Of a stretch of DNA of 52,156 nucleotides, positions 11,724-42,592 are shown in pieces (position 1 is the first letter of the stretch; each line of letters starts with the position of its first letter). Both the position numbers and the translations under genes were made by a program. This DNA is from Alphaproteobacteria bacterium. GTDB lineage: Bacteria; Pseudomonadota; Alphaproteobacteria; JACZXZ01. Where the stretch lies: NCBI GenBank assembly GCA_035272805.1, contig DATEQI010000307.1, forward strand, positions 1 through 52,156, written 5' to 3'. Below the pieces are notes generated by a model. It saw nothing but the letters and a program-made list of their open reading frames with translations, was not told the DNA's origin and ran no database searches.

Positions 11724-13406
11724 TTGGCAAATTATCAATACATCTACGTCATGAACGGCCTCACCAAGGCCTTCCCGGGCGGCCGGCAGGTACTCAAGGA
11801 TATTCGCCTTTCGTTCTTTCCCGGCGCCAAGATCGGCGTGCTGGGTCCGAACGGGTCCGGCAAATCGACGCTTCTGCGCATCATGGCGGGCCTCGAGAGC
11901 GACTTCGCGGGCGAGGCCTGGGCCGCCGAAGGGGTGAAGGTCGGCCTCTTGCCTCAGGAGCCCGCACTCGACGCCGGGAAGGACGTAATGGGCAACGTGC
12001 TCGACGGGGTCGCCGAGAAGAAGGCGCTCATCGAGCGCTTCGAGGCGGTGAGTGCCCGCTTCGCCGAGCCGCTCGAGGAGGCGGAGATGAATGCGCTCAT
12101 CGCCGAGCAGGCGGAGCTCCAGGAGAAGATCGACGCGAGCAACGGCTGGGAGCTGGAGCGCCAAGTCGAGATCGCCATGGACGCGCTGCGCTGCCCGCCG
12201 GGGGGTGCTGCGGTCGCGACCCTTTCGGGCGGGGAGCGCCGCCGGGTGGCCCTCTGCCGGCTGCTGCTTCAGCATCCCGATCTCTTGCTCCTCGACGAGC
12301 CGACCAACCATCTCGATGCGGAATCGGTCGCCTGGCTCGAGCGCTTTCTCTCCGAGTATGACGGCACCGTGGTCGCGGTCACCCATGACCGCTACTTCCT
12401 CGACAATACCGCCGGCTGGATCCTCGAGCTCGACCGCGGACGCGGCATCCCGTTCAAGGGCAATTACTCCTCCTGGCTTGAGCAGAAGCAGAAGCGCCTC
12501 GCGCTCGAGGAGAAGCAGGAAGCCTCCCGCCAGCGCGAGCTCGCCCGCGAGCTCGAGTGGATCCGCGAGTCGCCGCGCGCGCGTCAGGCCAAGAGCAAGG
12601 CGCGCATCAGCGCGTATGAGACGCTCCTCGCCGAGAGCCGCGATCGCGCGCCCGACCAGGCCCAGATCGTCATCCCGGCCGGCCCGCGGCTCGGCGATCT
12701 GGTGATCCAGGCCGAGCACGTCCGCAAGGCCTATGGCGAGCGGCTCCTGATCGAGGACTTGAGCTTTCGCGTGCCGGCCGGTGCGATCGTCGGCATCATC
12801 GGGCCCAACGGGGCCGGCAAGACGACGCTCTTCCGCATGATCACAGGCGAGGAGAAGCCCGACGGGGGCGAGCTCCGCATCGGTGAAACGGTGAAGCTCG
12901 GCTACGTCGACCAGTCGCGCGACTCGCTCCGCGCGGAGAAGACGGTGTGGGAGGAGATCTCGGACGGCCTCGATCAGCTCGAGCTCGGCAAGCACCGCAT
13001 GCCGAGCCGAGCCTACGTCGCCGCCTTCAACTTCAAGAGCGCCGATCAGCAGAAGAAGGTGGGGCAGCTCTCGGGTGGGGAGCGCAACCGCGTGCATCTC
13101 GCCAAGATGCTCAAATCGGGCGCCAACCTGCTGCTCCTCGACGAGCCGAGCAACGACATCGACGTCGACACTTTGAGGGCGCTCGAGGACGCGCTCGTCG
13201 CCTTTGCCGGCTGCGCCATGGTGATCAGCCACGACCGCTGGTTCCTCGATCGCATCGCCACGCACATGATGGCGTTCGAGGGCGAGAGCCAGGTCGCCTG
13301 GTTCGAGGGGAACTACTCGGACTACGAGGCCGATCGCCGCCGCCGCCTCGGCGAGGCGGCGGACCAGCCGCACCGCATCAAGTACAAGCCCCTGGTGAGG
13401 GCCTAA
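11724..13406 (+). CDS. ettA: Energy-dependent translational throttle ABC-F ATPase EttA
   Basis: 560 aa. Two ABC cassettes (GPNGSGKST / [11 protein letters not shown] and GPNGAGKTT / [11 protein letters not shown]). The N-terminus [38 protein letters not shown] is collinear with E. coli EttA. TTG start with AGGA upstream. Confidence 0.92.
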
Positions 13407-13484
13407 GTCCGGACTCAGATGACAGACGTCAGCCGATAATATCGGTATGCCCTCCGCGCGCAGTGTCCTCGTCGGCCGCGCCGG

Positions 13485-13513
13485 TTGACTGCACAAGGGC
13501 GGTAAATTACGAT
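13485..13513 (+). promoter_or_regulatory. Candidate promoter of the ino1 operon
   Basis: TTGACT (13485-13490), 17-nt spacer, TACGAT (13508-13513), about 95 nt upstream of the proposed GTG start. Confidence 0.3.
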
Positions 13514-13608
13514 TTGATGACAAAAGGGGCGCGGCTCGCCGTTTGATTGCCGTGCTATCGCTTGCGCGCCCGAGCGGCGACGGAGGAGCGCATGGGGGAT
13601 CTGATCCG

Positions 13609-14760
13609 GTGCAAAACAAAATCAAAGTAGCGATCGCTGGCGTCGGGAACTGTGCGTCGGCACTGGTGCAGGGCGTCGAGTTCTACCGCAACCGCCAGGG
13701 TGCGGCGCTGCATGGCATCATGCACCCCACGATCGGCGGCTATGGCTGCTCCGACATCGAGTTCGTCGCGGCGTTCGACGTCGACGTGCGCAAGATCGGC
13801 CGCCCGCTCGAGGAGGCGATCTTCGCCAAGCCCAACTGCACCCTCATCTTTCAAAGCGCGCTCCCGGTTTCGAACGTGATCGTTCAAGCCGGTCCCGTGC
13901 TCGATGGGGTCGCCGCCCACATGGCCGATTATCCGGATGACGTGGCGTTCCGCTCGGCCGACCTCGAGCCGACCGATATCGCGGAGGCGCTGCGCGCCTC
14001 CAAAGCGGAGGTCTTCCTCTGTTACCTGCCGGTCGGCTCCGAGCAGGCCGTCAAGCATTACGCCCAGGCGTGCCTCGACGCCGGCGTTGCCATGATCAAC
14101 TGCATTCCCGTCTTCCTCGCCTCCGACCCCGAATGGGCGCGGAGATTCCGCGACGCCGGCCTCCCGATCATCGGCGACGACATAAAGAGTCAAGTGGGCG
14201 CCACCATCGTGCATCGCGCCCTGGCGCGGCTTTTCGCCGACCGCGGGGTCGGCATCGAGCGCACCTACCAGCTCAACACGGGCGGCAATACCGATTTCCT
14301 CAACATGCTCGAGCGCAGCCGCCTCAAGTCGAAGAAAATCTCCAAGACCGAAGCCGTCCAATCGCAATTGGACGAGCAGCTCGAGGCCAAGAACATCCAC
14401 ATCGGCCCCTCCGACTACGTGCCGTGGCAGCGTGACAACAAGGTCTGCTTCATCCGCATTGAGGGCTATGGGTTCGGCGACGCGCCCATCGAACTGGAGC
14501 TGCGGCTCTCGGTCCAGGACTCCTCGAACAGCGCCGGTGTGGTGATCGATGCGATCCGCTGCGCGAAGCTTGCGCTCGAGCGGGGCGAGGCGGGCCCGCT
14601 CGAAGCACCCTCGGCCTATTACATGAAAAGCCCGCCGCGCCAGCTCCGCGACAGCGTCGCGCGAGAGGCCTGCGACGCCTTCATCGACGGCCGTGCCTTC
14701 GATTTGCCCGAGGAGCCGCAGCACGGCACGAGTGCCGCGACCAGAGCCGATCGCGGGTAG
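13609..14760 (+). CDS. ino1: myo-Inositol-1-phosphate synthase (MIPS, bacterial/archaeal type)
   Basis: KIKVAIAGVGNCASALVQG Rossmann start. Conserved NTGGNTDFLN and SKKISKTEAV blocks. Start placed at the GTG at 13609, which has GGGGGA upstream. The track ORF begins at 13543. Confidence 0.88.
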   Translation: MQNKIKVAIAGVGNCASALVQGVEFYRNRQGAALHGIMHPTIGGYGCSDIEFVAAFDVDVRKIGRPLEEAIFAKPNCTLIFQSALPVSNVIVQAGPVLDGVAAHMADYPDDVAFRSADLEPTDIAEALRASKAEVFLCYLPVGSEQAVKHYAQACLDAGVAMINCIPVFLASDPEWARRFRDAGLPIIGDDIKSQVGATIVHRALARLFADRGVGIERTYQLNTGGNTDFLNMLERSRLKSKKISKTEAVQSQLDEQLEAKNIHIGPSDYVPWQRDNKVCFIRIEGYGFGDAPIELELRLSVQDSSNSAGVVIDAIRCAKLALERGEAGPLEAPSAYYMKSPPRQLRDSVAREACDAFIDGRAFDLPEEPQHGTSAATRADRG

Positions 14761-14839
14761 AACAGATTGCGATGACGTGCGGTTTGAAGGCGCGGCCGGC
14801 GCGCCGCCCGGGCCGGCACGCCCATCGGGCGCGTGGTCG

Positions 14840-15619
14840 ATGACAAAACCGATCGAGACCTTGCTCTTCGATTTTGGCGGCACGCTCGACGCCGACGGCG
14901 TTGCGTGGAAGGCGCGCTTTTACGCCCATTATCGGGCGGAGGGGCTTGAGATGGCGGCCGCAGCCTTCGCACCCCTCTTCTACGCCGCCGATGATGCGCT
15001 CATCGGAGCCCTGCCGCCCGATTGCGACCTCGGCGAAACGATCGAGCGTCTGGCCGGCAATCTCGAGGCCGAGCTCGTCCGCCGCGACGGCGGCAGCGGC
15101 AAAGCCGGCGCCGATCGCGCGCGCGGCCGGCGGGTTGCCAAGCACTTCCTTGCCGAGGCTCAGGCGGCCTTCGCGCGCAATCGGCCGCTGCTCGAAACGC
15201 TGAGCGCACGCTTCCGCCTGGGCATCGTCTCGAATTTTTACGGCAATCTCGAAGCGGTGTGCCACGGCGCCGGCTTGGCGGCTTTTTTCGATGTCATTGT
15301 CGACAGCCATCGGGTCGGTGCGCGGAAGCCCGACCCGGCGATTTTTCGCGCAGCCCTCGCCCCCCTCGGCGCCAAGCCCGAGACGACGCTCATGATCGGC
15401 GATTCCTTGCGCCGCGACCGCGAGGGTGCGCGGCGCATGGGCATGGGCTTCATCTGGATTGCACCAAGCACTGCGCCGGCGTCGACGCTGCGGGCGGGCG
15501 AGGCCGAGCTCTGCCAGTCCAGGGTGGCGCAGCTCTCAGATCTAGCGGAGGTCTTGCATGACCGGCACGTCCGGCCGGCCGATCCTCAAGGGCGGCATCA
15601 TCGCCGCCGGCGAGGGTAG
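14840..15619 (+). CDS. HAD-superfamily hydrolase (candidate cyclitol-phosphate phosphatase)
   Basis: Motif I LLFDFGGTLD (second Asp replaced by Gly), motif II SNF, motif III/IV K...GDSLRRD. Start at the ATG at 14840. The 3' end overlaps the next gene by 62 nt. Confidence 0.8.
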   Translation: MTKPIETLLFDFGGTLDADGVAWKARFYAHYRAEGLEMAAAAFAPLFYAADDALIGALPPDCDLGETIERLAGNLEAELVRRDGGSGKAGADRARGRRVAKHFLAEAQAAFARNRPLLETLSARFRLGIVSNFYGNLEAVCHGAGLAAFFDVIVDSHRVGARKPDPAIFRAALAPLGAKPETTLMIGDSLRRDREGARRMGMGFIWIAPSTAPASTLRAGEAELCQSRVAQLSDLAEVLHDRHVRPADPQGRHHRRRRG

Positions 15620-16289
15620 CCGCCTCAGCGCCGACGGCTATCGCGGCAGCAAAGCGATGGTGTCCGTGGCCGGCCGTCCGCTGATCGGCCATGCCCTCGC
15701 GCGTTTTCGCGCCATCGGCATCCGCCGGCTGACGGTCATCGTCAACGACGCGAGTGAGGATTGCCAGGAATGGCTCAGGCACCACGGCGGCGATTTCGAG
15801 CTCGACCTCATCGTACGCACGACACCCTCCTCCTACGCGAGCTTCCGTCTCGTCGCCGAGCGGCTCTCCGGGGCCGCGGCACTGATTACGACCGTCGACG
15901 GCATCATGCCGACGGACGATTTCAGCACTTTCGCCAGGGCTGCGGCCGGCTTCCCTGAGGACGCCGTCGTGCTCGGCCTGACCGCCCACGTCGACGATGA
16001 AAAACCCCTGTGGGCGACGCTCGAGGCGGCCGATGGCCGCATCCGGCAGCTCGGCGGCGAGAGCGGCAGCCATGCGACGGCCGGCCTCTACGTGCTGCCC
16101 GTGGCACGGCCGGCCGAGCCCGCCCTAGGCTTCGCACGTCTGCGCGACTATCTCGGCTGGCTGGTGGCCGAAGGCCATCCGGTCTACGGTGTCGTCTTGC
16201 CGCGGGTCTTCGACATCGACCGTGCCAGCGACATCGCGGCGGCGGAGCGGGCGGCCGCCGGTAGTGAGACCACGAACGAGGCTCCATGA
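15558..16289 (+). CDS. NTP-transferase (sugar/cyclitol-phosphate nucleotidylyltransferase; IPCT-like candidate)
   Basis: Canonical N-terminal G-loop GGIIAAGEGSRL...KAMVSVAGRPLIGHAL. GGAGG lies 6 nt before the ATG. Confidence 0.8.
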   Translation: MTGTSGRPILKGGIIAAGEGSRLSADGYRGSKAMVSVAGRPLIGHALARFRAIGIRRLTVIVNDASEDCQEWLRHHGGDFELDLIVRTTPSSYASFRLVAERLSGAAALITTVDGIMPTDDFSTFARAAAGFPEDAVVLGLTAHVDDEKPLWATLEAADGRIRQLGGESGSHATAGLYVLPVARPAEPALGFARLRDYLGWLVAEGHPVYGVVLPRVFDIDRASDIAAAERAAAGSETTNEAP

Positions 16290-17137
16290 GTGCCGAAAGA
16301 ACCTGCTGGGGCATCTACCGCGAGTCCGCGCACTCGCCCGGGCGGGTCGAGGACGACGCGGCGATCATCGAGAGCGTGGGTGCCGCGCTGGCGGAGCGGG
16401 GCTTCAGCGTCGAGCTCCTCGCGAGCGATGCCGCCGACGCGGCCCTCGAGAGCCCGGGTGCGAACATCTTCACCATGTGCGAGCGCGGCGAGATCCTCGA
16501 TCGTCTCAAGGAGGCGACCCGGGCCGGTGCGGTCGTCGTCAACTCCCCGGATGCGATCCGCAACACCTATCGCCACCGCATGGTCGAGCTGTTCGCGAGG
16601 GCCGGCATACCGTCGCCGGCGAGCCACGTCCTCGCCACGAATGCCGCTGCCTCTCCGCCCCTCGCCTGCGCCTGGATCAAGCGCTATGATTTCCACGCGA
16701 CGCAATCGGACGACGTGATGTATGCGGCGTCCGAGGAGGGTTGGCGCGTGGCACTGGACCGTTTCGCCGGGCGCGGCATTCCCTTCGTCGTCGCTCAGCA
16801 GCATGTGCCCGGCGATCTCGTCAAATTCTACGGCGTGGCACGCGGTGCGGAGAGCACTGCGGGTGCCGTGTGGTTCGAATGGTTCTATCACCGGGACAAG
16901 GGCATGATCGGTCACGCTTTCGAGGCAGCCAGGCTGCATGACGTGGCGTTTCGCGCCGCCGCGGCATTGGGGTTGGAGATTTTCGGCGGCGACGCCATCA
17001 TCCAGCCCGACGGCGCGCCGATGATCATCGACCTCAATGCCTGGCCGAGCTATGCGCGCTATCGCCACGAGGCCGCGCGCGCCATCGCAACCCATCTCTC
17101 CGAGCGTTTCCAGCGGCGCCTGCGCGCCGTCAGCTGA
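16286..17137 (+). CDS. ATP-grasp domain protein (ligase or kinase, substrate unknown)
   Basis: 283 aa. ATP-grasp-like blocks WIKRYDFHAT, PFVVAQQHVPGDLVKFYGV and GGDAIIQPDGAPMIIDLNAWPS. ATGA start/stop overlap with the upstream gene. Confidence 0.7.
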   Translation: MSAERTCWGIYRESAHSPGRVEDDAAIIESVGAALAERGFSVELLASDAADAALESPGANIFTMCERGEILDRLKEATRAGAVVVNSPDAIRNTYRHRMVELFARAGIPSPASHVLATNAAASPPLACAWIKRYDFHATQSDDVMYAASEEGWRVALDRFAGRGIPFVVAQQHVPGDLVKFYGVARGAESTAGAVWFEWFYHRDKGMIGHAFEAARLHDVAFRAAAALGLEIFGGDAIIQPDGAPMIIDLNAWPSYARYRHEAARAIATHLSERFQRRLRAVS

Positions 17138-17151
17138 CAGGGAATCGAGCC

Positions 17152-18525
17152 ATGGACGACGTCCGCCCAACGAACGAGGCACCCGGCCATGCCGTCGGGG
17201 AGCGCCGTGCCGTGCCCGGCCCGCGCTCCAAGGCCGTCTTCGAGCGTGAAGCCCGAACCATGGCGCCCGGCCTGCAATCGCTGGCGCTTTTCTCGCAAAT
17301 CGCGGTCGACCGCGCCAAGGGCTCGACGATCACCGACGTCGACGGCAACGACTACCTCGATTTCGTCGCCGGGGTCGCCGTCGGCAGCCTCGGGCACTGC
17401 CATCCCCATTACCTCGAGCGCCTCAAGGAGCAGCTCGAGCGCGCCACCTTCGGCAGCTTCACGACCGAGACGCGCGCGCGCTTCCTCGAGCTCGCGGGCT
17501 CCGTCCTGCCCGAAGGGATTACGCACCTCCAGCTCTTCTCGGGCGGGGCCGAGGCGGTCGAGGCCGCCTTCCGCCTTGCCAAGTCGGTCACCAAGAAATT
17601 CGAATTCGTCGGCTTCTGGGGCGGCTTCCACGGCAAGACCGCGGGCGTCATCGGCCTGCTCGGCGGCGGCTATCGCAATCACCAGGGACCGTTTCCGCCC
17701 GGTATGCATCTCTCGCCCTACGCCAATTGCTACCGCTGCCCGTGGCATCTGGAATATCCGTCCTGCGGGCTTGCCTGTGCCGAGCATCTGCGCAACGTGA
17801 TCAAGAACGATACTCAAAGCGAGGTCGCGGCCATCATCATGGAGCCGATGCAGGGTACCGCCGGCAACGTCATCCCGCCCGACGAGTTCGTTCTCGCCGC
17901 GCGCGCAATCGCCCAAGAGATCGGCGCACTCTTCATCGCCGACGAGATCCTGACCGGATTCGGCCGCACGGGAACGATGTGGGCCTCGGAGCAATCCGGG
18001 CTGAAGCCCGACGTCATGACGATCGGCAAAGGCATGGGCGGGGGCTTTCCGCTGAGCGGGGTTGCCTCCTCGCTCGAGCTCATGTCGGCCAAGCCCTTCG
18101 GCGAGCCGAGCGGCAGCTCGTCGAGCTATGGCGGCAATCCGCTCGCCGCGGCCGCGGGGCTCGCAGCGATCGAGGCCATCCTCGCGGAGAAACTCGTCGA
18201 GAATTCGGCCCGCGTCGGTGCCAAGATGCTCGCGGCCCTCAAGGAGTTGCAGGACAAGTACCGCTTCATCGGCGACGTGCGCGGGCGCGGCCTGATGATC
18301 GGCGTCGAGCTGGTCGCGGATCGCACGACCAAGGAGCCCTTGGACAAGACCATCACCCGCGCCCTTTTCCACGAGGCGCTCGAGCGCGGCCTCGTCACCA
18401 TGTCCTATTCGCACGTCATCCGCATCAACCCGCCCCTCGTCATCACCGAGGACGAAGCCTTGCGCGGCGTCGATATCCTCGACCAGTCGTTCGCCGCCAT
18501 TCAGCACCGCTTCGGGCTCGATTGA
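17152..18525 (+). CDS. Class III (omega) PLP-dependent aminotransferase
   Basis: 457 aa. FSGGAEAVEAAFRLAK, DEILTGFGRTG, and PLP-lysine block DVMTIGKGMGGGFPLSG. Confidence 0.88.
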   Translation: MDDVRPTNEAPGHAVGERRAVPGPRSKAVFEREARTMAPGLQSLALFSQIAVDRAKGSTITDVDGNDYLDFVAGVAVGSLGHCHPHYLERLKEQLERATFGSFTTETRARFLELAGSVLPEGITHLQLFSGGAEAVEAAFRLAKSVTKKFEFVGFWGGFHGKTAGVIGLLGGGYRNHQGPFPPGMHLSPYANCYRCPWHLEYPSCGLACAEHLRNVIKNDTQSEVAAIIMEPMQGTAGNVIPPDEFVLAARAIAQEIGALFIADEILTGFGRTGTMWASEQSGLKPDVMTIGKGMGGGFPLSGVASSLELMSAKPFGEPSGSSSSYGGNPLAAAAGLAAIEAILAEKLVENSARVGAKMLAALKELQDKYRFIGDVRGRGLMIGVELVADRTTKEPLDKTITRALFHEALERGLVTMSYSHVIRINPPLVITEDEALRGVDILDQSFAAIQHRFGLD

Positions 18526-19544
18526 TGCGCCGGCGCCCCCTGCGCGGCGCCTTCATCGGCTTCGGCGGCGTCGCCGCCAAGGGGCATCTGCCCGGCTGGC
18601 GCGCGCGCAGCGACACAACGATCGTCGCCGCGGCCGACGCAGCGCCTCAGCGCCGGCAGGCGTTTCTCGCGGCCTCCCCCGGTGCCCGCGTCTACGAGTC
18701 CGTCGACGAGCTCTTGGCCGGCGAGACCCTCGACTTCGTGGATATCTGCACCCCGCCCGGCAGTCACGCGGGGCTGATCGCGCAGGCACTCGACGCCCGC
18801 CTCCATGTGCTCTGCGAAAAGCCCCTGACAACGCGGCTCGAGGACGCCCGCAGCGTGGCCGACGCCGCCGCGCGTGCCGAGCGCGTCGTGCACACGGTCC
18901 ACAACTGGCTCGCGGCGCCGGTCTGTCTCCGCGTCTCGGCCCTCGTCTCCGAAGGGGCGATAGGGGCGGTGCGCACGCTCCGTTGGCGCACCCTACGGAG
19001 CGCACCCGCGGCCGCGAGCGATGCAGCCGGCAATTGGCGCGTCGATCCGGCGCAGGCGGGCGGCGGCATCCTCCTCGATCACGGCTGGCACGCGCTCTAT
19101 TGCATCATGCGCTGGGCCAGCGGCACACCGCGCGCCCTCTCTGCCTCGCTCGAAACCCGCCGCTTTCGCGAATGGCCGCTCGAGGACACGGCGACGCTCG
19201 CCATCGATCTCGCAACCGCCACCGGCCACGTGCATCTCACCTGGGCGGCTGACGAGCGCGCCAACCACATCGAGCTCGAGGGCGAGCGCGGCAGCATCGC
19301 TGTCGTCGGCGAGAGCGTCCTCTTCGAGGGGCCGTCGGGGAGGAGCTCTTGGTCTTGTCCGCCGTCCTTGTCCGACGGCTCGCACCATCCGGACTGGTTC
19401 GCGGGTGTCGCGGAGGATTTCCACGCCGCGATGGCGGGAGATGGCGCGGGCAATCTGGCCGAGGCGCTTTTGTGCGCGCGGCTGATCGATCTTGCCCAGC
19501 GCTCGAGTGCGGCCGGCGGTGCCAAGCTCCCGCTCGAGGCCTAA
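18525..19544 (+). CDS. Gfo/Idh/MocA-family NAD(P)-dependent oxidoreductase (inositol-dehydrogenase-like)
   Basis: GAFIGFGGVAAKGHLP Rossmann start and the EKP motif (VLCEKPLT). The ATG at 18525 overlaps the upstream TGA (TGATG). It is the C-terminal 339 aa of the 605-aa track ORF. Confidence 0.85.
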   Translation: MRRRPLRGAFIGFGGVAAKGHLPGWRARSDTTIVAAADAAPQRRQAFLAASPGARVYESVDELLAGETLDFVDICTPPGSHAGLIAQALDARLHVLCEKPLTTRLEDARSVADAAARAERVVHTVHNWLAAPVCLRVSALVSEGAIGAVRTLRWRTLRSAPAAASDAAGNWRVDPAQAGGGILLDHGWHALYCIMRWASGTPRALSASLETRRFREWPLEDTATLAIDLATATGHVHLTWAADERANHIELEGERGSIAVVGESVLFEGPSGRSSWSCPPSLSDGSHHPDWFAGVAEDFHAAMAGDGAGNLAEALLCARLIDLAQRSSAAGGAKLPLEA

Positions 19545-20797
19545 GCGCTGGAGGGCGTGGATATCCTCGCCGATCGCTCGCGCAGGTCGAGGAAGAGCAC
19601 CGAGAAGAAGAAGATCGGCGCGCCCAGTCCCGTCAACAGCAAGAACCAGTTTGCTCTGCCGAAAAGCGCAAAGACCAAGATGAGATAGAAGAAATCTCGT
19701 CGGCAGAGCGTGTCGAGGAGCCGGGCCAAGGGGCGCGCCGGCGCGCGCGCGACCGAGGTGAAGAGCGGGCCGGCAGCCGCTTTCGGGCGTAACAGCCGCC
19801 AATAGACGAAGCTCGCCGACCCGAGCGTGCCGAGGACCGCCGAGACCCCGAGCAGGACCGGCAGCAGCCCCCCGTCGCTTAGGCTCCAGCCCCCCGCCAT
19901 GCAGGCGAAGACCGCACTGTGCACGACGTTGTCGCCCCAGAAATCGAGCAATCCGCCCCATCGCGTTTCCTGGAACCTCAAGCGGGCGAGCTCCCCGTCG
20001 CAGCCGTCGAGAATCGAATGGGCGAGGAGGAGGAGTGCCCCCACGGTCTGCCACCGCCCGAGTGGCGAGAGGAAGAAGGGAGCTCCGGCAAGGCCGATGA
20101 CGACGGAGATCAGGGTGATCTCGTTGGGGGTCACGGCCGACGCCGCCAGAAGCCGCGAAATGGCGAGCGAAACGGGCCGCTCGACGTGCCGCGCCATGAA
20201 GCCGTCGGTATCCTTGACGAGCGAGCGCAAGAGACGGCGCTCCGCAGCACGGATATCGGCCGGTGCCGTGACCACCATCGGGTCAACGCCCGCGGATAAT
20301 GCCGCGGGGGCGCCAAAACGCCGGGTCAGCCGCTCGTGCGCGGCCGGGAAATCGCGAGCGCCGCCGTCCGCGGCGAGGGTCGCGAGGGCTTCCGATACGG
20401 CCGCCGCGGGGAGCATGATCACTCGCCCCGGTGCCGCTGCCCAGGCGGCGCCTTCGATCTGCACCTCGGCCAGGCGTTCGAGCCAATCCGTTTCGCCGAG
20501 GATCGTCGCGGGCGCAATGACGAGCGCTACCATGTTCTCCGAGCGTAGTGCCGCTTGAAGCGTGGTCCAATCGGCAGGGCTCGTGATATCCGGCAAAGCG
20601 TCGTCGTCGTGCGCCAGGCGGAATACGCGGGCGTAGCCGGCGCGGCGGGCGGCGAGCGTGGCGCGCTGCGCCAAACCGAGTCCGAGGATCTTGAGATCGC
20701 CACGGTCCGCCGGTGCTGCGCCGGCTGCGCGGGGCGGCACGGCGGCGCTCCGCAAAAGGACCAGATTCGGCGCGGCACTGCGAAGAGGGCTCGACAC
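19541..20797 (-). CDS. CDP-alcohol phosphatidyltransferase with an N-terminal degenerate nucleotidyltransferase-like domain (IPCT/DIPPS-like architecture)
   Basis: Complete motif D-GC-DG-EL-AR-LRFQETRW-G-GLL-D-FWG-D (Dx2DGx2ARx8Gx3Dx3D). KDTDGFMARHVERPVSLAIS linker followed by about 6 TM helices. The N-domain has ILGLGLAQR where a GxGxRL loop is expected. GTG start. Confidence 0.85.
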   Translation of the reverse strand: MSSPLRSAAPNLVLLRSAAVPPRAAGAAPADRGDLKILGLGLAQRATLAARRAGYARVFRLAHDDDALPDITSPADWTTLQAALRSENMVALVIAPATILGETDWLERLAEVQIEGAAWAAAPGRVIMLPAAAVSEALATLAADGGARDFPAAHERLTRRFGAPAALSAGVDPMVVTAPADIRAAERRLLRSLVKDTDGFMARHVERPVSLAISRLLAASAVTPNEITLISVVIGLAGAPFFLSPLGRWQTVGALLLLAHSILDGCDGELARLRFQETRWGGLLDFWGDNVVHSAVFACMAGGWSLSDGGLLPVLLGVSAVLGTLGSASFVYWRLLRPKAAAGPLFTSVARAPARPLARLLDTLCRRDFFYLILVFALFGRANWFLLLTGLGAPIFFFSVLFLDLRERSARISTPSSA

Positions 20798-20865
20798 CGC
20801 GTCGGTATATATGTAATTGCCGTGGGCAACAAGGATCGATCAGACACAGTGCCCGCGCGCGCTCG

Positions 20866-21888
20866 ATGCGGCCGCGGGCAAGGAGCCCTCTCATTCGCCC
20901 CGCGATGATCGCCGCAGCACTTCTCGGTCTGGCGCTTGTCGTCTACCTGATCATCGACAGCGGTGCCGAGGACGTGGCGCATGCCATGCTGTCGGTCGGC
21001 TGGGGCTTAGCTGTGATCGCCGCGTTCCACCTCGTCCCCATGTGTTTGAGTGCGCTCTCCTGGCGCGATCTCTTGCCGCGATCGAGCCGGTTGGATGTGC
21101 TGAGCGTGACATGGATCCGCTGGATTCGCGAATCGATCAACTCGCTGCTGCCGGTCGCCGGTGTGGGCGGCGACGTGGCCTGCGCGCGCCTCGCCCATCT
21201 CTGCGGCGTGCCGGCCAAGCAAGCGGCGGCCAGCATGGTCGTCGACATCACGGTGGGGGCCGCGACACAGCTGCTCTTTGTCGTGATCGGCGTTGGCCTG
21301 CTGCTGATGCGCTCGACCGAGCCCGCCGTGCTCGCGCTCGCCTCGGCGGTGCTGGCCGGCATCGCCGTCTTCATCGCGGCGATCGCGGCATTCCTCGTCT
21401 TGCAGCATCGCGGCATGCTCGCACTGTCGGCCAGGCTCGCGGGCGGGGTGTTGCGGAGCGAGCGGCTCTCGGGTGCTGCGGGCAGCGCTTCGGCGGTCGA
21501 CGATGCCGTCGTCGCCATCTACCGCGACAGGATCGCCTTCTGGCGAGCCGGTCTTGTCCGTCTCATCGGCTGGGCCGCGGGAACGGGCGAGACCTGGCTG
21601 GTGACGCAGTTCCTCGGCCAGCCGCTCAGCCTGCTCGATGCCTTCATCCTCGAAAGCCTCGGTGCCGGCGTGCGCGGGGCGGCGTTCATGGTGCCCGGAC
21701 AGTTGGGCATCCTCGAAGGCAGCTATGTCGTTTTCGGAGCCCTCTTCGGGCTGCCGGCGGAAGCCGCGCTCACGATTTCTCTTGCCAGGCGGGTGCGCGA
21801 GCTGGCTTTGGGCGTGCCGGGCCTGCTTGTCTGGCACTGGATCGAAACCCGCCGCCTGCTGCGCCGCTCGCTGGACGAGGCGAGCTGA
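20866..21888 (+). CDS. Lysylphosphatidylglycerol-synthase-TM / flippase-like domain membrane protein (UPF0104; HpnL-like)
   Basis: About 340 aa, polytopic, with a basic N-terminus then LLGLALVVYLII. The overall pattern is that of the LPG_synthase_TM family. Start could be 20866 or 20905. Confidence 0.75.
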   Translation: MRPRARSPLIRPAMIAAALLGLALVVYLIIDSGAEDVAHAMLSVGWGLAVIAAFHLVPMCLSALSWRDLLPRSSRLDVLSVTWIRWIRESINSLLPVAGVGGDVACARLAHLCGVPAKQAAASMVVDITVGAATQLLFVVIGVGLLLMRSTEPAVLALASAVLAGIAVFIAAIAAFLVLQHRGMLALSARLAGGVLRSERLSGAAGSASAVDDAVVAIYRDRIAFWRAGLVRLIGWAAGTGETWLVTQFLGQPLSLLDAFILESLGAGVRGAAFMVPGQLGILEGSYVVFGALFGLPAEAALTISLARRVRELALGVPGLLVWHWIETRRLLRRSLDEAS

Positions 21889-21903
21889 AGCGGCCTCCGG
21901 CAC

Positions 21904-24546
21904 TCACGGGCGCCTCGAGGCGGCAGGGAGCTCCCGCGGGTCGCGCGGGGCAGCCGTACCTTGGCTCCGCGGCGGCGGCCCGAGGAGGGCCGGCTCGAAG
22001 AGGAGTGCCGTCACCAGCGTCCAAGCGAGGGAGATCACCAGGAGTTTGCCCATGCTGGCGGTACCCGGGTGGGGCGAGAGCCACAGGCTGCCGAAGGCGG
22101 TCGCCGTCGTGAGCGCGCTGAACAGCACCGCGCGCGTGAGGCTCGACTGCAGGAGATTGGTCGCCCCGGAGCGCCACGCGACGACGAAGTAAATGTTGAA
22201 CGCCACGCCGATGCCGAAGAGGAGCGGGAGGGCAATGATGTCGGCGAAATTGAGCGGCGGGCCGATCAGCACGGAGCTCGCCATCGTGAGCAGCCCCATC
22301 AGCAGGATCGGGATCACGGTCATGGCCACGTCGCGGATGCGACGCAGGACGGCCGCAAGGAGGATCGTGATCGCCACGAGCGACCAGAACCCGGCCTGAA
22401 CGAAGGCGCTCACGACCGTCCGGCCCGCCTCCAGGATCGTAATCGGAGCTCCCGTCGCAGCGGGAGCCAGCGTCCGCACCGCCGCGGTGAAGCGTTCGAG
22501 CGTGCGGTTGTCGTTCGAATCGCCCTTGGGATAGACTTCGATCCGCGCGCGGCCGTCCGCGGCTATCCAATCGCGCACGAGCTCCGGCGGCAGGCTCCGA
22601 AGAGTCACCGCTTCGGCTTGCAGCGCGGCGCGCAGCTGATCGAGCATGACCAAGAGCGGCCTGATGAGCGTCTCGGACGCGCGCGCCCGCAGTGCCGGCG
22701 TCCCGGTCGCAAGCGTGTCCAGCACCGCGGCGAGCCGCCGCGCGGCGGCCGCCGCGGCCGTCGTCGCGGCTCCCACGGTCCGTCGCAGCTCGCCGGCCGT
22801 CCGCGCGAGGCTTTGCGCCGTTTCGCCGTCGCTCGGCGCCGGCTTCACGGCGAGCGGATTGAGCGTGAGATCGAGCAGATTGGAGGCGTCCTTGACGAGT
22901 GCCAGCTTTGCCGCTTGGTCGCTCGGAATGAAGCTGCTCAAGCTGAGCGCATGGTCGACCTCGGGGAGTGCGGCCAGGCGCTTGGCGAGGGCGTCCGCGG
23001 CAGCGAGCGAGGGAGCGAGCACGTCGATGGTGTTGGGCGTCTCGTCGGGCTCGGACAGCAGGTCCATCAAGGTCGACGTGGACTCGACGCGGAGGCTCCG
23101 CAGGTGGAGCGGATTGAAGTCGAAACGCACGAGCGGCAGGAGGATCAAGCACAGGATGGCGGCCACGCCGCCGCTGGCGAGAACGCGCCTTCGCCGGCTC
23201 ATGAGATAGCGGTCGAGCGGTGCCAGAGCGGCAAAGCCGATCTCGGCCGTCTCCGCCCCGGGACGCGCGAGCGTCAAGAGAGCGGGGAGCAGCGTTATGC
23301 TGAGGAGGAAGGCGATCACCATGCCCGCCCCCGCGATCACGCCGAGCTCCGAGGCCCCCACGTAGGATGTCGGCAGAAAGGCGCAGAAGCCGACCGCAAT
23401 GGCGCCGGCTGCAAGTGCCAACGAGCCGCCCACCGTCGATCCTGCAGCAGTCAAGGCGTCCCTCAAGTCCCGATGGACGAGGCGCTCGGCACGGTAGCGC
23501 ACGCTGAACTGGATGCCGAAGTCGATGCCCAGCCCGACGAACAGGGGAACGAAGGCGACCGAGATCACGTTGAATCGTCCGACGGCGAGAAGTCCGAGGC
23601 CCGCCGTCGCGAGCAGGCCGACGACGGTCGTGATCACGATGCAGGCGATGATGCGAAGCGAGCGGACGGCAAGCCACAGCATGACCAATACGGCGCCGAG
23701 CGTGCCGAAGGTCATGAGCCAAAGGTGCTGCGTCAAGGTGGAGAACTCCTCGTCCTCCATCTGAACCTCCCCGGTCAAGCGGACCCTGACGCCATTCTGG
23801 GGACTGAGGTCGAGGGCGCGCGCGGCCGCGCGGACGGCATGGCTTGCGCGTGCGGCGGGTGCGAGCGCTCCATAGTCCAACTTGGGCTGCACCAGGATGA
23901 AGCGTCTTGTCTCGCGCGTGCCGGCGGGACCGCCCGAGATGAGCGTTTGCCAGGAGAAAAAGGCCGGCTCTCCTTGCGCCACGCGTCCGAGGGCATCGGC
24001 GAGCTCGGCCAAGGGCCGCGCGAGTTTATCGAGCGTGGTCTCGCCTTGCCGCACGCCCTCGAGTGCTAAGTCGAGGGTGCCCATGACGCCACGCAGGCTT
24101 GGATCCGCGGCCAGCGGACCGAGGAAGCCCTGGCTGGCGATGAGCTGGTCCATCGCGGTCGCCACGTCGGCCAAGGGCAGCAGAAGGAGGCCGTTACGGG
24201 CGAAGAATTGGCTGCCGTCGGGCCGCTCGACCGATTTGAACGAATCGGATCTCGCCGCGAGCCGTGCGGCGAGCCGAGCCGTTCCCCATTCGGCGAGCTC
24301 CGGCGTAGTACCGTCCACGACCACCACGATCGCCGCGCTTTGCCGGGGAAACGCCTCGTCGAAGGCAGCCTTATCCCGTCGCCACGGAAGGTCCGGTGAG
24401 ATCAGGTTGATGCTGTCGGTCGTTATCGCGAAGTGCCGCACGGTATAAACGGCGGAGAGCGCGCCGAGTGCCATCCCCGCCAGGGCGACGACCCAGGCCC
24501 AACGGCAGCACGCATTGACGATACGGGCGATGAGGCGCGGCTTCAC
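21904..24546 (-). CDS. MMPL/RND-superfamily transporter (hopanoid-associated HpnN-like)
   Basis: 880 aa. Two 6-TM bundles, each preceded by a large periplasmic loop. The N-terminus MKPRLIARIVNACCRWAWVVALAG...YTVRHFAITTDSINLISPDLPWRR is typical of the HpnN subgroup as I recall it. Confidence 0.85.
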   Translation of the reverse strand: MKPRLIARIVNACCRWAWVVALAGMALGALSAVYTVRHFAITTDSINLISPDLPWRRDKAAFDEAFPRQSAAIVVVVDGTTPELAEWGTARLAARLAARSDSFKSVERPDGSQFFARNGLLLLPLADVATAMDQLIASQGFLGPLAADPSLRGVMGTLDLALEGVRQGETTLDKLARPLAELADALGRVAQGEPAFFSWQTLISGGPAGTRETRRFILVQPKLDYGALAPAARASHAVRAAARALDLSPQNGVRVRLTGEVQMEDEEFSTLTQHLWLMTFGTLGAVLVMLWLAVRSLRIIACIVITTVVGLLATAGLGLLAVGRFNVISVAFVPLFVGLGIDFGIQFSVRYRAERLVHRDLRDALTAAGSTVGGSLALAAGAIAVGFCAFLPTSYVGASELGVIAGAGMVIAFLLSITLLPALLTLARPGAETAEIGFAALAPLDRYLMSRRRRVLASGGVAAILCLILLPLVRFDFNPLHLRSLRVESTSTLMDLLSEPDETPNTIDVLAPSLAAADALAKRLAALPEVDHALSLSSFIPSDQAAKLALVKDASNLLDLTLNPLAVKPAPSDGETAQSLARTAGELRRTVGAATTAAAAAARRLAAVLDTLATGTPALRARASETLIRPLLVMLDQLRAALQAEAVTLRSLPPELVRDWIAADGRARIEVYPKGDSNDNRTLERFTAAVRTLAPAATGAPITILEAGRTVVSAFVQAGFWSLVAITILLAAVLRRIRDVAMTVIPILLMGLLTMASSVLIGPPLNFADIIALPLLFGIGVAFNIYFVVAWRSGATNLLQSSLTRAVLFSALTTATAFGSLWLSPHPGTASMGKLLVISLAWTLVTALLFEPALLGPPPRSQGTAAPRDPRELPAASRRP

Positions 24547-24881
24547 GATCGATGCGTTGCCGCATGGCGCTTGGGAAACATCCGTCGACGCCTCGGCTCT
24601 CGGAGGTTCTTGCCCACCATATCCAGCTCCTCAGCACGATCGCCGACGGTCGCCCATAGCAGTTTGCTCCGTGAGCCATCGAGAGGTTTCATGCCCGCCC
24701 TCGCGTGCGGCGCCTCGAGATATGCGACGTATCTTGGCGGCAAGCCTCACGCACGTCCGCGAGATGGCCGCCGAACGTCAAAACAAGCCACCGGTTGGGA
24801 GCCGCGATGCAGCCCGACCCAACTCAAGCCCTATTCCCCATATGACGCGCTGATTTACGCACAGATTCAGGCGACCGAGAA

Positions 24882-24905
24882 GAACCGCCCGATTTCGGGC
24901 GGTTC
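24882..24905 (-). terminator. Stem-loop downstream of the glycosyltransferase gene
   Basis: Perfect 9-bp stem GAACCGCCC / GGGCGGTTC with 6-nt loop GATTTC, about 40 nt after the stop at 24946. On the minus strand it is followed by TTCT only (weak U-tract). Confidence 0.4.
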
Positions 24906-24945
24906 CATGCCTGGCCGAATGAGACCAACCTTGGCGAGCACATCG

Positions 24946-26355: not shown

Positions 26356-26379
26356 TCGAGGTCGCGGCCAGGAGGATGT

Positions 26380-27097: not shown

Positions 27098-27284
27098 CCG
27101 GTGCGCCCCGACCGCCTCGCTTGATCCAGATTAACTTATTGGATCTTATACAAGAATCGATCACGAGGCGCGGCACTTCCGAGCGTCGTCCGGGGCCTGC
27201 GGGGTGAGATGTCAGATGCCGGCTTAAGGGACGCGGTCCTGGGTGTTTTCCGTCCTCTGGCATCTGTCATCTGCCATCCGGACC

Positions 27285-42564: not shown

Positions 42565-42592
42565 GGACGAAAATCGGCGGTGGCGCTTGGAC

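Follow-up and report, generated by a model that had tools for sequence, protein, structure and literature searches.

A conserved gene set predicted to build a cyclitol-phosphate headgroup, next to or inside hopanoid gene clusters of uncultured soil Alphaproteobacteria

Introduction

Here, we asked what is made by a gene set found in a 52,156-nucleotide stretch of alphaproteobacterial DNA (hereafter, the window; contig DATEQI010000307.1, assembly GCA_035272805.1), and what it is made for. A first-pass annotation, based on the sequence alone, had described an operon with inositol-1-phosphate synthase (MIPS), HAD, NTP transferase, ATP-grasp, aminotransferase and dehydrogenase genes, converging on a CDP-alcohol phosphatidyltransferase gene, and had proposed that it builds a CDP-activated cyclitol phosphate, which is further oxidised, transaminated, and ligated or phosphorylated, joined to a membrane alcohol or a second cyclitol, and exported. 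Our analysis indicates that this conserved but uncharacterised gene set appears to build a CDP-activated, probably aminated inositol phosphate and to attach it to a membrane alcohol, which could mean an unknown phosphate-linked lipid headgroup and a first testable role for the hopanoid gene hpnL.

Gene content and organization of the locus

The following genes were identified:

13609-14760, plus strand: MIPS, with a GTG start
14840-15619, plus strand: HAD-IA hydrolase with an atypical motif I
15558-16289, plus strand: nucleotidyltransferase, presumed to be a cytidylyltransferase
16286-17137, plus strand: ATP-grasp enzyme of an unannotated family (kinase or ligase)
17152-18525, plus strand: class-III (GABA-AT-like) PLP aminotransferase
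18525-19544, plus strand: Gfo/Idh/MocA NAD(P) oxidoreductase
19541-20797, minus strand: AF2299/DIPPS-type CDP-alcohol phosphotransferase
20866-21888, plus strand: HpnL, a flippase-like LPG_synthase_TM protein
21904-24546, minus strand: HpnN, an RND/MMPL hopanoid transporter

The observation made in the first-pass annotation is real, as every gene family, overlap and motif it listed was found at the coordinates it gave, with one exception: the six operon genes had been described as translationally coupled, which is overstated, since only three of the five junctions overlap. MIPS and HAD are separated by 79 nt, and the ATP-grasp and aminotransferase genes by 14 nt. Reading the sequence directly, we found GGAGG (15547-15551) followed, after 6 nt, by the ATG at 15558, so that the nucleotidyltransferase gene starts inside the HAD 3' end, which it overlaps by 62 nt; ATGA at 16286-16289, where the ATP-grasp gene overlaps the nucleotidyltransferase gene; and TGATG at 18523-18527, where the oxidoreductase gene overlaps the aminotransferase gene. 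The TAA stop of the oxidoreductase gene (19542-19544) overlaps the TAG stop of the convergent transferase gene (19541-19543), a 4-nt overlap. The start of the transferase is more likely GTG 20797 (418 aa) than 20740, because the N-terminal APILIL... segment is conserved in homologues. Moreover, 15 nt (21889-21903) separate the stop of hpnL from that of the MMPL gene, which is therefore convergent with hpnL and not co-directional.

Predicted enzymes

MIPS matches Pfam Inos-1-P_synth at 126 bits, and TIGR03450 aligns over its full length at 461 bits, below its actinobacterial equivalog cut-off. The HAD protein matches Pfam Hydrolase/HAD_2, its best NCBIfam match being the REG-2-like subfamily, below cut-off. 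Its motif I reads DFGGTLD, invariant in 52 homologues, in which the Asp+2 position, usually a general acid, is Gly; hence, its phosphatase role is uncertain. The nucleotidyltransferase matches NTP_transf_3 at 47.5 bits and conserves the G-x-G-S-R, K and D signature, but belongs to no specific family: it reaches at most 40 bits to MurU, ManC, LicC and IPCT, against cut-offs of 250 or more, and so matches no sugar-1-phosphate family with a known product.

The ATP-grasp protein has no Pfam hit, and its assignment is supported by weak RimK/MptN hits, by PDB sequence hits and by a fold search, in which its AF2 model (pLDDT 72) matches the ATP-grasp folds RimK, Ddl, PsnB and ITPK1 at E about 1e-11 to 1e-12. 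In a profile search of the PDB, the top six hits are all ITPK1/ITPK4, at E about 1e-3, over the motif FGGDaI...IDLNAWPSY, and the protein has a D-D-N Mg/ATP motif resembling that of the inositol-phosphate kinase ITPK1. However, this link rests on 44 C-terminal columns only, and RimK and Ddl ligases fit the fold equally well. The family has 383 representatives at E<=1e-30. Elsewhere, domain fusions tie four of the enzymes to one pathway: NTP transferase-ATP-grasp (P0398 and other proteins), HAD, NTP-transferase and ATP-grasp domains together (P0421 and P0495), ATP-grasp-HAD and ATP-grasp-CDP-alcohol transferase fusions exist.

The aminotransferase matches Aminotran_3 at 333 bits, and its nearest solved structures are GABA aminotransferases. 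The oxidoreductase matches GFO_IDH_MocA plus the C3 domain, with weak hits to iolG and UDP-GlcNAc 3-dehydrogenase; its nearest PDB entries are uncharacterised GFOs, 6nor and DgpA, while inositol dehydrogenases reach only about 1e-11.

The transferase (Pfam CDP-OH_P_transf) carries the complete motif D-G-C-D-G-E-L-A-R-(8)-G-(3)-D-(3)-D. NCBIfam ranks DIPPS (81.8 bits) above AIP synthase (51.8), PIP synthase (47.2) and PgsA (18.5), and a phmmer search against the PDB gives AF2299 at 4e-21 and IPCT-DIPPS at 5e-14. Its AF2 model (pLDDT 79.8) matches AF2299 and 4mnd over the full length, whereas the N-domain alone matches IspD, KdsB and GlmU. This N-domain is a degenerate nucleotidyltransferase fold lacking the GxGxR/K signature, which explains why a separate, active NTP transferase is encoded. 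The enzyme is thus closest to DIPPS/AF2299, the type that takes a soluble CDP-alcohol as donor, and not to PgsA, Pss or Pcs.

Conservation and hopanoid context

We then focused on the two membrane proteins, annotated at first only as LPG-synthase-TM/flippase-like and MMPL. The former is HpnL (TIGR03476, 308.8 bits, cut-off 195.65) and the latter the hopanoid transporter HpnN (NF052374, 1132.7 bits, cut-off 1100; TIGR03480, 1036 bits, cut-off 752). Two further genes of the window lie at the periphery:

27285-27914, minus strand: HpnM/MlaC-like periplasmic lipid-binding protein (TIGR03481, 107.6 bits, below its cut-off of 160)
27927-28934, minus strand: MlaA-like (HpnS-like) outer-membrane lipoprotein (MlaA hit, 127.9 bits)

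The same arrangement as in the window, with the HpnM/MlaC-like gene at the periphery, is found in loci L001, L002 and L008, while in other loci hpnM lies beside hpnN, and in 44 of 57 an MlaA-like gene sits between hpnL and hpnN.

To evaluate conservation, 80 species-level relatives were compared. The six genes occur in the same order, convergent on the transferase gene, in 42 of the 61 loci with enough flank, with protein identities of 50-94%, while the outer flanks differ, which is more than expected by chance. MIPS (70-94%) and the aminotransferase (74-96%) are among the best-conserved operon proteins. The transferase gene is adjacent to and divergent from hpnL in 49 of 57 informative loci, and HpnN is present in 46 of 57. 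Of the 52 loci with both flanks, 45 carry a hopanoid marker other than HpnL, and in 11 the block lies within 10 kb of hpnH or shc, usually with ispH and hpnG. In loci L086/L087, the order is hpnM-hpnN-mlaA-hpnL-transferase-operon-ispH-hpnH-hpnG-shc, and about ten loci have ispH-hpnH-hpnG-hpnM-hpnN-hpnS-hpnL-transferase-operon-shc. In locus L085, hpnA lies next to MIPS. These neighbours pass curated cut-offs (HpnH 553>225, HpnA 458>367, HpnN 1238>1100, HpnL 288>195). In addition, in a clade lacking the operon, the transferase still stays with hpnL-hpnS-hpnN.

Nevertheless, the window itself has no shc or hpnH within 52 kb, and two divergent loci (L070 and L073) carry the seven genes without hpnL or hpnN nearby. 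Moreover, a wider five-gene core exists in other lineages: a distant lineage has transferase, HAD, NTP transferase, ATP-grasp and aminotransferase genes (the latter encoding a protein 53-55% identical) with neither MIPS, GFO nor hpnL nearby. No cultured carrier was identified.

Proposed pathway

Altogether, the interpretation in the first-pass annotation is partly supported. The locus does look like a pathway from MIPS, through a nucleotide-activated cyclitol phosphate, to a CDP-alcohol phosphotransferase. Of the findings it had named in advance as refuting, none that could be computed was observed: the transferase is not closest to housekeeping enzymes, the nucleotidyltransferase matches no family with a known sugar product, and the gene set is strongly co-conserved. 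Its statement that no characterised equivalent is known also agrees with our literature searches, in which no paper describing this pathway was found. However, it missed the identity of HpnL and HpnN and the hopanoid clusters of relatives, which change the most likely acceptor and the significance of the finding. It also did not mention the closest published analogue, a putative Bacteroides/Prevotella cluster of MIPS, NTP transferase, CDP-alcohol transferase and HAD genes, with a nearby LPG-synthase-like gene, that correlates with inositol lipids (PMC9246714).

Our preferred reading, which remains tentative and is held at less than even confidence, is a Kennedy-type head-group pathway tied to hopanoids. 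MIPS would turn glucose-6-phosphate into inositol phosphate, and the cyclitol would be oxidised by the Gfo/Idh/MocA enzyme and transaminated by the class-III aminotransferase, giving an inosamine. The HAD and ATP-grasp enzymes would remove and re-install a phosphate or, alternatively, the ATP-grasp enzyme would N-acylate the amine. The nucleotidyltransferase would then make the CDP-(amino)cyclitol, from which the membrane transferase would move the phospho-(amino)cyclitol onto a membrane alcohol, releasing CMP. Because the transferase is almost always paired with hpnL, and the block lies beside or inside hopanoid clusters, the most likely acceptor is a hydroxyl of an extended hopanoid such as bacteriohopanetetrol, and the product would be a phosphodiester-linked composite hopanoid. 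HpnL would flip it to the outer leaflet, and HpnN, with the MlaA-like and MlaC-like proteins, would carry it to the outer membrane.

Our data show the gene families, architecture, co-conservation, hopanoid context and domain fusions; everything beyond homology and gene context is inference, including CTP as the nucleotide, amination of the cyclitol, the order of steps, the kinase role of the ATP-grasp enzyme, the identity of the acceptor, and flipping by HpnL. No chemistry supports this reading: no phosphorylated hopanoid was found in the searchable literature, and a survey of 63 bacteriohopanepolyol derivatives in Alphaproteobacteria lists none (PMC12583986). Furthermore, the closest homologue of known function, DIPPS, makes a soluble product, the substrates of AF2299 are not established, and the aminotransferase is of class III and not of the DegT/StsC type used in known aminocyclitol pathways.

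Alternative explanations

It is also possible, though less likely, that the chemistry is the same but the acceptor is diacylglycerol (or ceramide), giving a phosphatidyl-inositol or phosphatidyl-inosamine type glycerolipid by a Kennedy-like route. In this view, co-location with hopanoid transport genes would merely reflect that both shape the outer membrane, and HpnL would act as a phospholipid flippase, as the MprF flippase domain does. The Bacteroides/Prevotella cluster was indeed proposed to make PI from CDP-inositol and DAG in organisms lacking hopanoids (PMC9246714), all characterised lipid-forming members of the CDP-alcohol phosphotransferase family use glycerolipid or ceramide partners, and both the L070 and L073 loci and the distant core without hpnL fit this reading. 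Against it stand the hopanoid-specific genes next to the block in 45 of 52 informative loci, its nesting between hpnG/hpnN and shc, counted in at least 11 loci, the score of the partner protein as HpnL and not as a generic MprF-like protein, and the clade in which the transferase stays with hpnL-hpnS-hpnN without the operon. A soluble phosphodiester compatible solute, analogous to di-myo-inositol phosphate or glycero-phospho-inositol, is unlikely. Here, the CDP-(amino)cyclitol would be joined to a second polyol phosphate by the DIPPS/AF2299-like enzyme, and the HAD enzyme would remove the extra phosphate, giving it a clear role as counterpart of the DIPP phosphatase; the relationship to DIPPS, and then to AF2299, as well as the HAD, NTP transferase and ATP-grasp fusions, suit such a pathway. 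However, tight divergent pairing with a flippase-like membrane protein and lipid transporters is not expected for a cytoplasmic solute, the organisms are mesophilic soil bacteria, the IPCT/DIPPS equivalog score is 81.8 bits against a cut-off of 580, and the fused IPCT domain is degenerate.

Split functions are considered very unlikely. MIPS, the NTP transferase and the CDP-alcohol transferase would add phospho-inositol, while the aminotransferase, the ATP-grasp enzyme and possibly the GFO enzyme would act on the hopanoid side chain, by HpnO-like amination to aminotriol and ATP-dependent N-acylation with an amino acid. HpnO is also a class-III aminotransferase, N-ornithinyl, N-tryptophanyl and N-phenylalanyl aminotriols exist (PMC12583986), no ligase being known for them, and the ATP-grasp fold fits ligases as well as kinases. 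Nevertheless, the ATP-grasp domain is fused to NTP-transferase, HAD and CDP-alcohol transferase domains and not to hopanoid enzymes, the genes overlap within the cyclitol operon (ATGA, TGATG), the aminotransferase falls in the GABA-AT and not the ArgD/ornithine-AT subgroup, and the distant core keeps it without any hopanoid genes nearby. Only remotely possible is a diffusible aminocyclitol natural product or signal, of the rhizopine or aminoglycoside type, with an unrelated transferase. Although MIPS, a Gfo/Idh/MocA dehydrogenase and an aminotransferase together form the classic entry to inosamines, as the first-pass annotation pointed out, the conserved block contains no glycosyltransferases, amidinotransferases or methyltransferases typical of such pathways, the aminotransferase is not of the DegT/StsC type, and the 4-nt convergent overlap, the co-conservation and the ATP-grasp-transferase fusion link the operon to the transferase.

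Finally, a candidate promoter, for which the evidence is weak, lies upstream of the operon in the 200-nt gap after ettA:

13485-13513, plus strand: promoter-like site, TTGACT-17-TACGAT

It was the only sigma-70-like match in 13300-22000, against 0.6 expected in shuffles.

Gene content and organization of the locus

The window is GC-rich (about 0.61-0.70), and profile searches of its encoded proteins recovered eight of the nine protein families that had been expected in the first-pass annotation, while the ninth gene had no Pfam hit. The genes are as follows.

13609-14760: myo-inositol-1-phosphate synthase (MIPS)
14840-15619: HAD-IA hydrolase
15558-16289: NTP_transf_3 nucleotidyltransferase
16286-17137: ATP-grasp protein without a Pfam hit
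17152-18525: class-III aminotransferase
18525-19544: Gfo/Idh/MocA oxidoreductase (GFO)
19541-20797, minus strand: CDP-alcohol phosphotransferase
20866-21888: LPG_synthase_TM protein, identified here as HpnL
21904-24546, minus strand: MMPL/RND protein, identified here as HpnN

The MIPS protein scores 126.4 bits to Pfam Inos-1-P_synth, against a cut-off of 27, and aligns over 355/355 positions of TIGR03450 at 461 bits, although this is below the cut-off of 638 of that actinobacterial equivalog. Regarding the gene at 16286-17137, three lines of evidence show that it encodes an ATP-grasp protein: weak RimK/MptN hits, sequence hits in the PDB, and an AlphaFold model (pLDDT 72) that matches RimK, Ddl, PsnB and ITPK1 at E about 1e-11 to 1e-12.

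Reading the sequence directly, we found that the observation made in the first-pass annotation holds, also in its fine details. A GGAGG-N6-ATG lies inside the 3' end of the HAD gene, ATGA is found at 16286 and TGATG at 18523, the two convergent stop codons overlap by 4 nt at 19541-19544, the Dx2DGx2ARx8Gx3Dx3D motif of the transferase is complete, and 15 nt separate the hpnL stop from the MMPL gene. Nevertheless, two corrections apply. The six operon genes had been described as translationally coupled, but only three of the five junctions overlap, as MIPS and HAD are 79 nt apart, and the ATP-grasp and aminotransferase genes 14 nt apart. Moreover, the MMPL gene, described as following 15 nt later, is convergent with its neighbor. 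In the window, the HAD reading frame runs 62 nt into the nucleotidyltransferase gene (15558-15619) and has a non-conserved, Arg-rich tail, while in related loci the two genes overlap by only 4 nt, which may reflect a recent loss of the stop codon or a frameshift at the HAD 3' end.

An Rfam scan of 11-30 kb found no riboswitches or other RNA families, and a scan for promoters and terminators gave one weak promoter-like site and terminator-like hits no more frequent than in shuffled sequences.

Hopanoid genes next to the operon

The first-pass annotation had missed the association with hopanoids. NCBIfam places the LPG_synthase_TM protein in HpnL (TIGR03476, 308.8 bits, cut-off 195.65), and the MMPL protein in the hopanoid transporter HpnN (NF052374, 1132.7 bits, cut-off 1100; TIGR03480, 1036 bits, cut-off 752). 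Downstream lie a GT4 glycosyltransferase gene (24946-26355; weak MshA-like hit), a DDE transposase fragment (26380-26832), an HpnM/MlaC-like gene and an MlaA-like gene. The first two sit between hpnN and the hpnM-like/mlaA-like pair, in a GC dip to about 0.61 (24000-27200), and, as the GT4 gene is shared only with the closest relatives (loci L001 and L002), it is probably a recent insertion. None of shc, hpnH and hpnG was found within the 52 kb of the window.

Conservation of the locus

The transferase family has more than 1,700 hits, mostly about 400-450 aa long. A scan of one genome per species returned 266 relatives, the best 80 of which are all metagenome-assembled genomes, almost all labelled Alphaproteobacteria (Pseudolabrys, Roseiarcus, Xanthobacteraceae, Stellaceae, Dongiaceae and unclassified). 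No cultured carrier was found, as the top 120 hits, the 80 genome loci and ten cluster look-ups gave only MAG or metagenome records.

The window's proteins were then compared with these loci by tblastn. Among the 57 loci with at least 9 kb on the hpnL side, HpnL was present in 49, HpnN in 46, an MlaA-like gene in 44 and HpnM in 28. Among the 61 loci with at least 7 kb on the other side, 42 carried all six operon genes in the same order and orientation, while 18 carried none of the six. Among the 52 loci with both flanks, 45 had a hopanoid marker other than HpnL, and 11 had hpnH or shc within 10 kb; co-location with shc, hpnH and hpnG was counted in 13-16 of 87 loci overall.

The 18 operon-less loci form one clade in a neighbor-joining tree. 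They carry unrelated genes after the transferase, which nevertheless remains with hpnL-mlaA-hpnN, so this looks like one relocation or loss rather than weak linkage. In one locus of this clade (L022, 2027-3655), pstB and phoU of the phosphate regulon lie just upstream of hpnN, which might hint at phosphate-dependent regulation of the hopanoid transport and transferase block.

Gene tables with Pfam labels showed two layouts in which the block is nested within hopanoid clusters. The first, in loci L086 and L087, is hpnM-hpnN-mlaA-hpnL-transferase-GFO-aminotransferase-ATP-grasp-NTP transferase-HAD-MIPS-ispH-hpnH-hpnG-shc. The second, seen in about ten loci, is ispH-hpnH-hpnG-hpnM-hpnN-mlaA-hpnL-transferase-operon-shc. 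In addition, hpnA sits next to MIPS in locus L085. These neighbors pass curated cut-offs (HpnH 553>225, HpnA 458>367, HpnN 1238>1100, HpnL 288>195). In one relative (L083, 5796-8869), a B12-binding radical-SAM/DUF4070 protein, with weak HpnJ and PhpK-family hits, and an ISAZ013 transposase lie next to hpnL, where hpnN would otherwise be. However, two divergent loci (L070 and L073) carry the seven genes without hpn neighbors. A search for HpnL homologues was saturated by relatives at 63% identity or more, and thus the pairing of hpnL with this type of transferase is described here for this clade only.

The CDP-alcohol phosphotransferase

The protein belongs to the CDP-alcohol phosphotransferase superfamily, with 42.4 bits to PF01066 (cut-off 22) and motif residues that are invariant in 30 homologues. 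NCBIfam ranks IPCT/DIPPS first (NF041135, 81.8 bits, cut-off 580, with only residues 170-323 aligned), followed by archaetidylinositol-phosphate synthase (51.8 bits), PIP synthase (47.2 bits, cut-off 170) and PgsA (18.5 bits, cut-off 109), all below cut-off, and there was no Pss or Pcs hit at E<0.01. On these scores, a housekeeping PgsA/Pss/Pcs enzyme was rejected. Against the PDB, phmmer gave AF2299 first (4e-21, also aligning a short N-domain segment with a non-significant score), then IPCT-DIPPS (5e-14), then PIP synthases.

An AlphaFold model (pLDDT 79.8) superposes over its full length on AF2299 (Foldseek E 6e-12, TM-score normalized to the target 0.65-0.70) and on IPCT-DIPPS, and its N-terminal ~190 residues alone hit cytidylyltransferases such as IspD, KdsB, GlmU and RmlA. 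The predicted architecture, a cytoplasmic N-domain followed by a six-helix membrane domain, is that of AF2299-type enzymes. However, the N-domain consensus (APILILxPAP...VLGLGLxxRTxxAARRAGY) lacks the Gly-rich loop, Arg and Lys of active enzymes, and the protein therefore looks like an IPCT-DIPPS whose cytidylyltransferase half has decayed. This fits the separately encoded nucleotidyltransferase, which keeps GxGSR, K and D (compare the IMPCT residues cited in PMC12275187). The latter matches no family with a known product (RmlA, GlmU, ManC, MurU and IPCT were considered), as the best NCBIfam score is 38.5 bits, against cut-offs of 250-718, and the best PDB profile hit 39.9 bits, so that its use of CTP is inferred from its partner.

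The other enzymes and the predicted ATP-grasp family

The GFO protein has the generic sugar/cyclitol dehydrogenase signature, but it is not close to the inositol 2-dehydrogenase IolG (TIGR04380, 58.8 bits against a cut-off of 355), and PDB inositol dehydrogenases reach only about 1e-11. The aminotransferase is GABA-AT-like. Motif I of the HAD enzyme is an invariant DFGGTLD, with Gly where phosphatases normally have the Asp+2 general acid, and its activity is therefore uncertain.

In the ATP-grasp protein, D236, D249 and N251 are invariant. A profile search of the PDB ranked six ITPK1/ITPK4 entries first (E about 1e-3), over the motif FGGDaI...IDLNAWPSY, which contains a D-D-N metal triad, with PsnB and RimK below them. 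Still, only 42-44 C-terminal columns align; hhalign against an approximate human ITPK1 sequence aligned only the 44 C-terminal columns (probability 86%), there is no Pfam Ins134_P3_kin hit, and the fold search does not separate ligases from ITPK1, so that a kinase role is no more than a lead.

An exhaustive search showed that the ATP-grasp family is large, with 383 representatives at E<=1e-30, and includes natural fusions. NTP transferase-ATP-grasp fusions were confirmed by Pfam in five proteins, and three more have the same layout by length; the others are HAD-NTP transferase-ATP-grasp (P0421), ATP-grasp-HAD (P0495), and ATP-grasp fused to this same transferase family (P0411). The fused domains are 40-52% identical to the window's proteins, and these fusions tie four of the enzymes to one pathway.

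A metagenome scan with the triple fusion P0421 found no close relative, but it revealed a distant, non-alphaproteobacterial-looking lineage (loci L088, L089, L092 and L093, for example L092 7237-14026; GC 0.61-0.63) with an unfused five-gene core. There, a B12-binding radical-SAM gene and a CDP-alcohol transferase gene are divergent from HAD-NTP transferase-ATP-grasp-aminotransferase, with no MIPS, GFO or hpnL nearby. The alphaproteobacterial locus is therefore a five-gene core with MIPS, GFO and the hpnL pairing added. The radical-SAM enzyme could supply or modify the alcohol, as HpnJ does in cyclitol ether synthesis. A further contig with 29% GC (L094, 9995-11349) carries only an adjacent HAD and NTP transferase pair, 26-31% identical to the window's proteins and next to secA and lnt, with no ATP-grasp or transferase hit nearby, which may be a minimal or unrelated use of the pair.

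Comparison with known systems

The di-myo-inositol-phosphate pathway of hyperthermophiles (IPCT/DIPPS of A. fulgidus, PDB 4MND) follows the same pathway logic, from the MIPS product to CDP-inositol and a CDP-alcohol phosphotransferase, and its enzyme has the same two-domain architecture and complete motif, being the best NCBIfam and the second-best PDB match of the transferase. It differs in that the N-domain here has lost the GxGxR/K catalytic signature and a separate NTP transferase is encoded, in that aminotransferase, GFO, ATP-grasp and HAD genes are added, in the hosts, which here are mesophilic soil Alphaproteobacteria, and in the pairing with lipid flippase and transporter genes. AF2299 (PDB 4O6M/4O6N/4Q7C) is the best match in sequence and structure, but identity is only 22%, the N-domain here is longer (about 190 aa), and, as its own natural function is unknown, it does not define a product.

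The putative alternative inositol-lipid cluster of Bacteroides vulgatus and Prevotella (Heaver et al. 2022, PMC9246714) combines MIPS, an NTP transferase, a CDP-alcohol phosphatidyltransferase and a HAD hydrolase with an LPG-synthase-like membrane gene nearby, a gene content that is also found in the window, and was proposed to work through CDP-inositol without a PIP intermediate. That cluster, itself unconfirmed, lacks the ATP-grasp, aminotransferase and GFO genes, and its hosts make no hopanoids. In addition, CpgD of the CDP-glycerate headgroup pathway for ceramide in Caulobacter (PMC12275187) is an alphaproteobacterial cytidylyltransferase that supplies a CDP-activated polar group to a non-glycerolipid membrane lipid, and the conserved R, K and D residues are spaced as in IMPCT. 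However, its substrate (phosphoglycerate) and transferase (CpgA) are different, and no CDP-alcohol phosphotransferase is mentioned for that pathway.

Regarding hopanoids, the known side-chain and headgroup genes are hpnI/J/K (BHT cyclitol ether), with hpnL, hpnM and hpnN; HpnL and HpnN are shared, in some relatives the present genes are found in the same clusters, and the end product would also be an amino-cyclitol-bearing polar hopanoid. The known cyclitol ether, though, comes from GlcNAc through a glycosyltransferase, a deacetylase and a radical-SAM ring contraction, and is ether-linked, whereas here the cyclitol would come from MIPS and be phosphodiester-linked. As no hpnI/J/K genes were seen in the flanks, cyclitol ether synthesis was rejected. 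A later-eluting BHT-cyclitol-ether isomer of unknown structure is reported in Roseiarcus fermentans and others (PMC12583986), and a BHT-inosamine ether would have the same mass (C41H73NO8, 707.534); however, a CDP-alcohol transferase should form a phosphodiester, not an ether, and this link was not adopted.

In the inosamine branch of aminocyclitol pathways (streptomycin, rhizopine), the order of oxidation of inositol by a Gfo/Idh/MocA dehydrogenase, transamination and phosphorylation matches the most economical reading of the operon, but the aminotransferase here is class III, not DegT/StsC, the candidate kinase is an ATP-grasp protein, and the product would be nucleotide-activated and handed to a membrane transferase. 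ITPK1-type inositol phosphate kinases share the ATP-grasp fold, the D-D-N metal triad and the motif FG.D.I...IDxNxxPxY, but RimK, Ddl and PsnB ligases match the fold equally well. The mycothiol pathway was also rejected, as there is no conserved MshA/B/C/D set and the GT4 gene occurs only in the closest relatives.

Proposed pathway and its acceptor

The most economical scheme uses each enzyme once. In this view, MIPS would make inositol phosphate, the HAD enzyme would remove the phosphate, the GFO enzyme and the aminotransferase would make an inosamine, the ATP-grasp enzyme would re-phosphorylate it, the NTP transferase would make the CDP-inosamine, and the transferase would move the phospho-inosamine to a membrane alcohol. 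Other orders are possible: the GFO enzyme and the aminotransferase might act on Ins-P or on CDP-inositol, as the UDP-sugar 3-dehydrogenase/aminotransferase pairs do, the ATP-grasp enzyme might be an N-acyl ligase, and the HAD enzyme might remove a phosphate from the product. Our analysis establishes homology, architecture and gene context, while every functional statement beyond these, the activities of the enzymes and the hopanoid nature of the product included, is inferred. The interpretation put forward in the first-pass annotation, of a CDP-activated cyclitol phosphate that is oxidized, transaminated, joined to a membrane alcohol or a second cyclitol and exported, is supported in part. The pathway is best placed among the CDP-alcohol (Kennedy/DIPPS-type) headgroup pathways, and its distinguishing points are the amination branch, the unannotated ATP-grasp family, the degenerate IPCT domain and, above all, its position inside hopanoid clusters, as seen in some relatives.

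The acceptor is the key unknown. Gene context favors an extended hopanoid, which we propose tentatively, and in that case HpnL would be the flippase, and HpnN, the MlaA-like and the MlaC-like proteins the export route. A diacylglycerol acceptor, following the Bacteroides proposal (PMC9246714), is a less likely possibility, and a soluble DIP-like solute, following the closest characterized enzyme, is more unlikely still. In its most far-reaching form, which we consider unlikely on present evidence, the hopanoid reading would mean that uncultured soil and peat Alphaproteobacteria (lineages related to Pseudolabrys, Roseiarcus, Xanthobacteraceae, Stellaceae and Dongiaceae) make an undescribed class of hopanoid, namely bacteriohopanepolyols carrying a phosphodiester-linked inosamine or inositol headgroup built by a CDP-cyclitol Kennedy-type pathway, with HpnL as the dedicated flippase for this, and perhaps for other, polar-headgroup hopanoids. 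It would be the first CDP-alcohol phosphotransferase found to use a triterpenoid acceptor.

If the hopanoid reading is right, it adds a phosphorus- and nitrogen-containing headgroup class to the bacteriohopanepolyols, lipids that are used as soil and sediment biomarkers and that matter for membrane robustness and plant symbiosis. It would also give the first concrete, testable function for HpnL, which two recent surveys still list as unknown (bioRxiv 10.1101/2025.07.29.667474; PMC12583986) without mentioning inositol or CDP-alcohol genes, and extend the substrate range of CDP-alcohol phosphotransferases to a sterol-like acceptor. No paper in the literature searched combines hopanoids with CDP-alcohol transferases, inosamine or MIPS, none mentions a phosphorylated hopanoid, and no follow-up confirming the CDP-inositol route in Bacteroidota was found, although much of the subscription literature lies outside such searches and absence is not proof. 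If the acceptor is diacylglycerol instead, the locus would still be the proteobacterial counterpart of that unconfirmed route to inositol lipids in gut Bacteroidota, with an added amination branch. Irrespective of the acceptor, the ATP-grasp protein defines a sizeable family with no Pfam hit, whose fusions to nucleotidyltransferase, HAD and CDP-alcohol transferase domains make its biochemistry directly approachable.

Other genes in the window

A second cluster of mostly minus-strand genes that look lipid-related is found at 34962-50791. It contains DUF6134, a 704-aa protein with a C-terminal SDR domain, MlaA (38430-39254), a two-component system, DUF3108, a geranylgeranyl-reductase-family flavoprotein (43479-45104), a PigE-like/ArgD-like class-III aminotransferase (45884-47251), a DedA/VTT protein, DUF547, and a 526-aa protein with no family. 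It may be an amino-lipid or isoprenoid-modifying locus, and its aminotransferase is more like ArgD/ornithine aminotransferase, and so more HpnO-like, than the one in the operon. Moreover, a 496-aa Fic/DOC-domain protein is encoded at 9361-10851, in a stretch of lower GC (0.62-0.64) with small ORFs without family hits nearby, between a NahK/ErcS-type hybrid histidine kinase and ettA.
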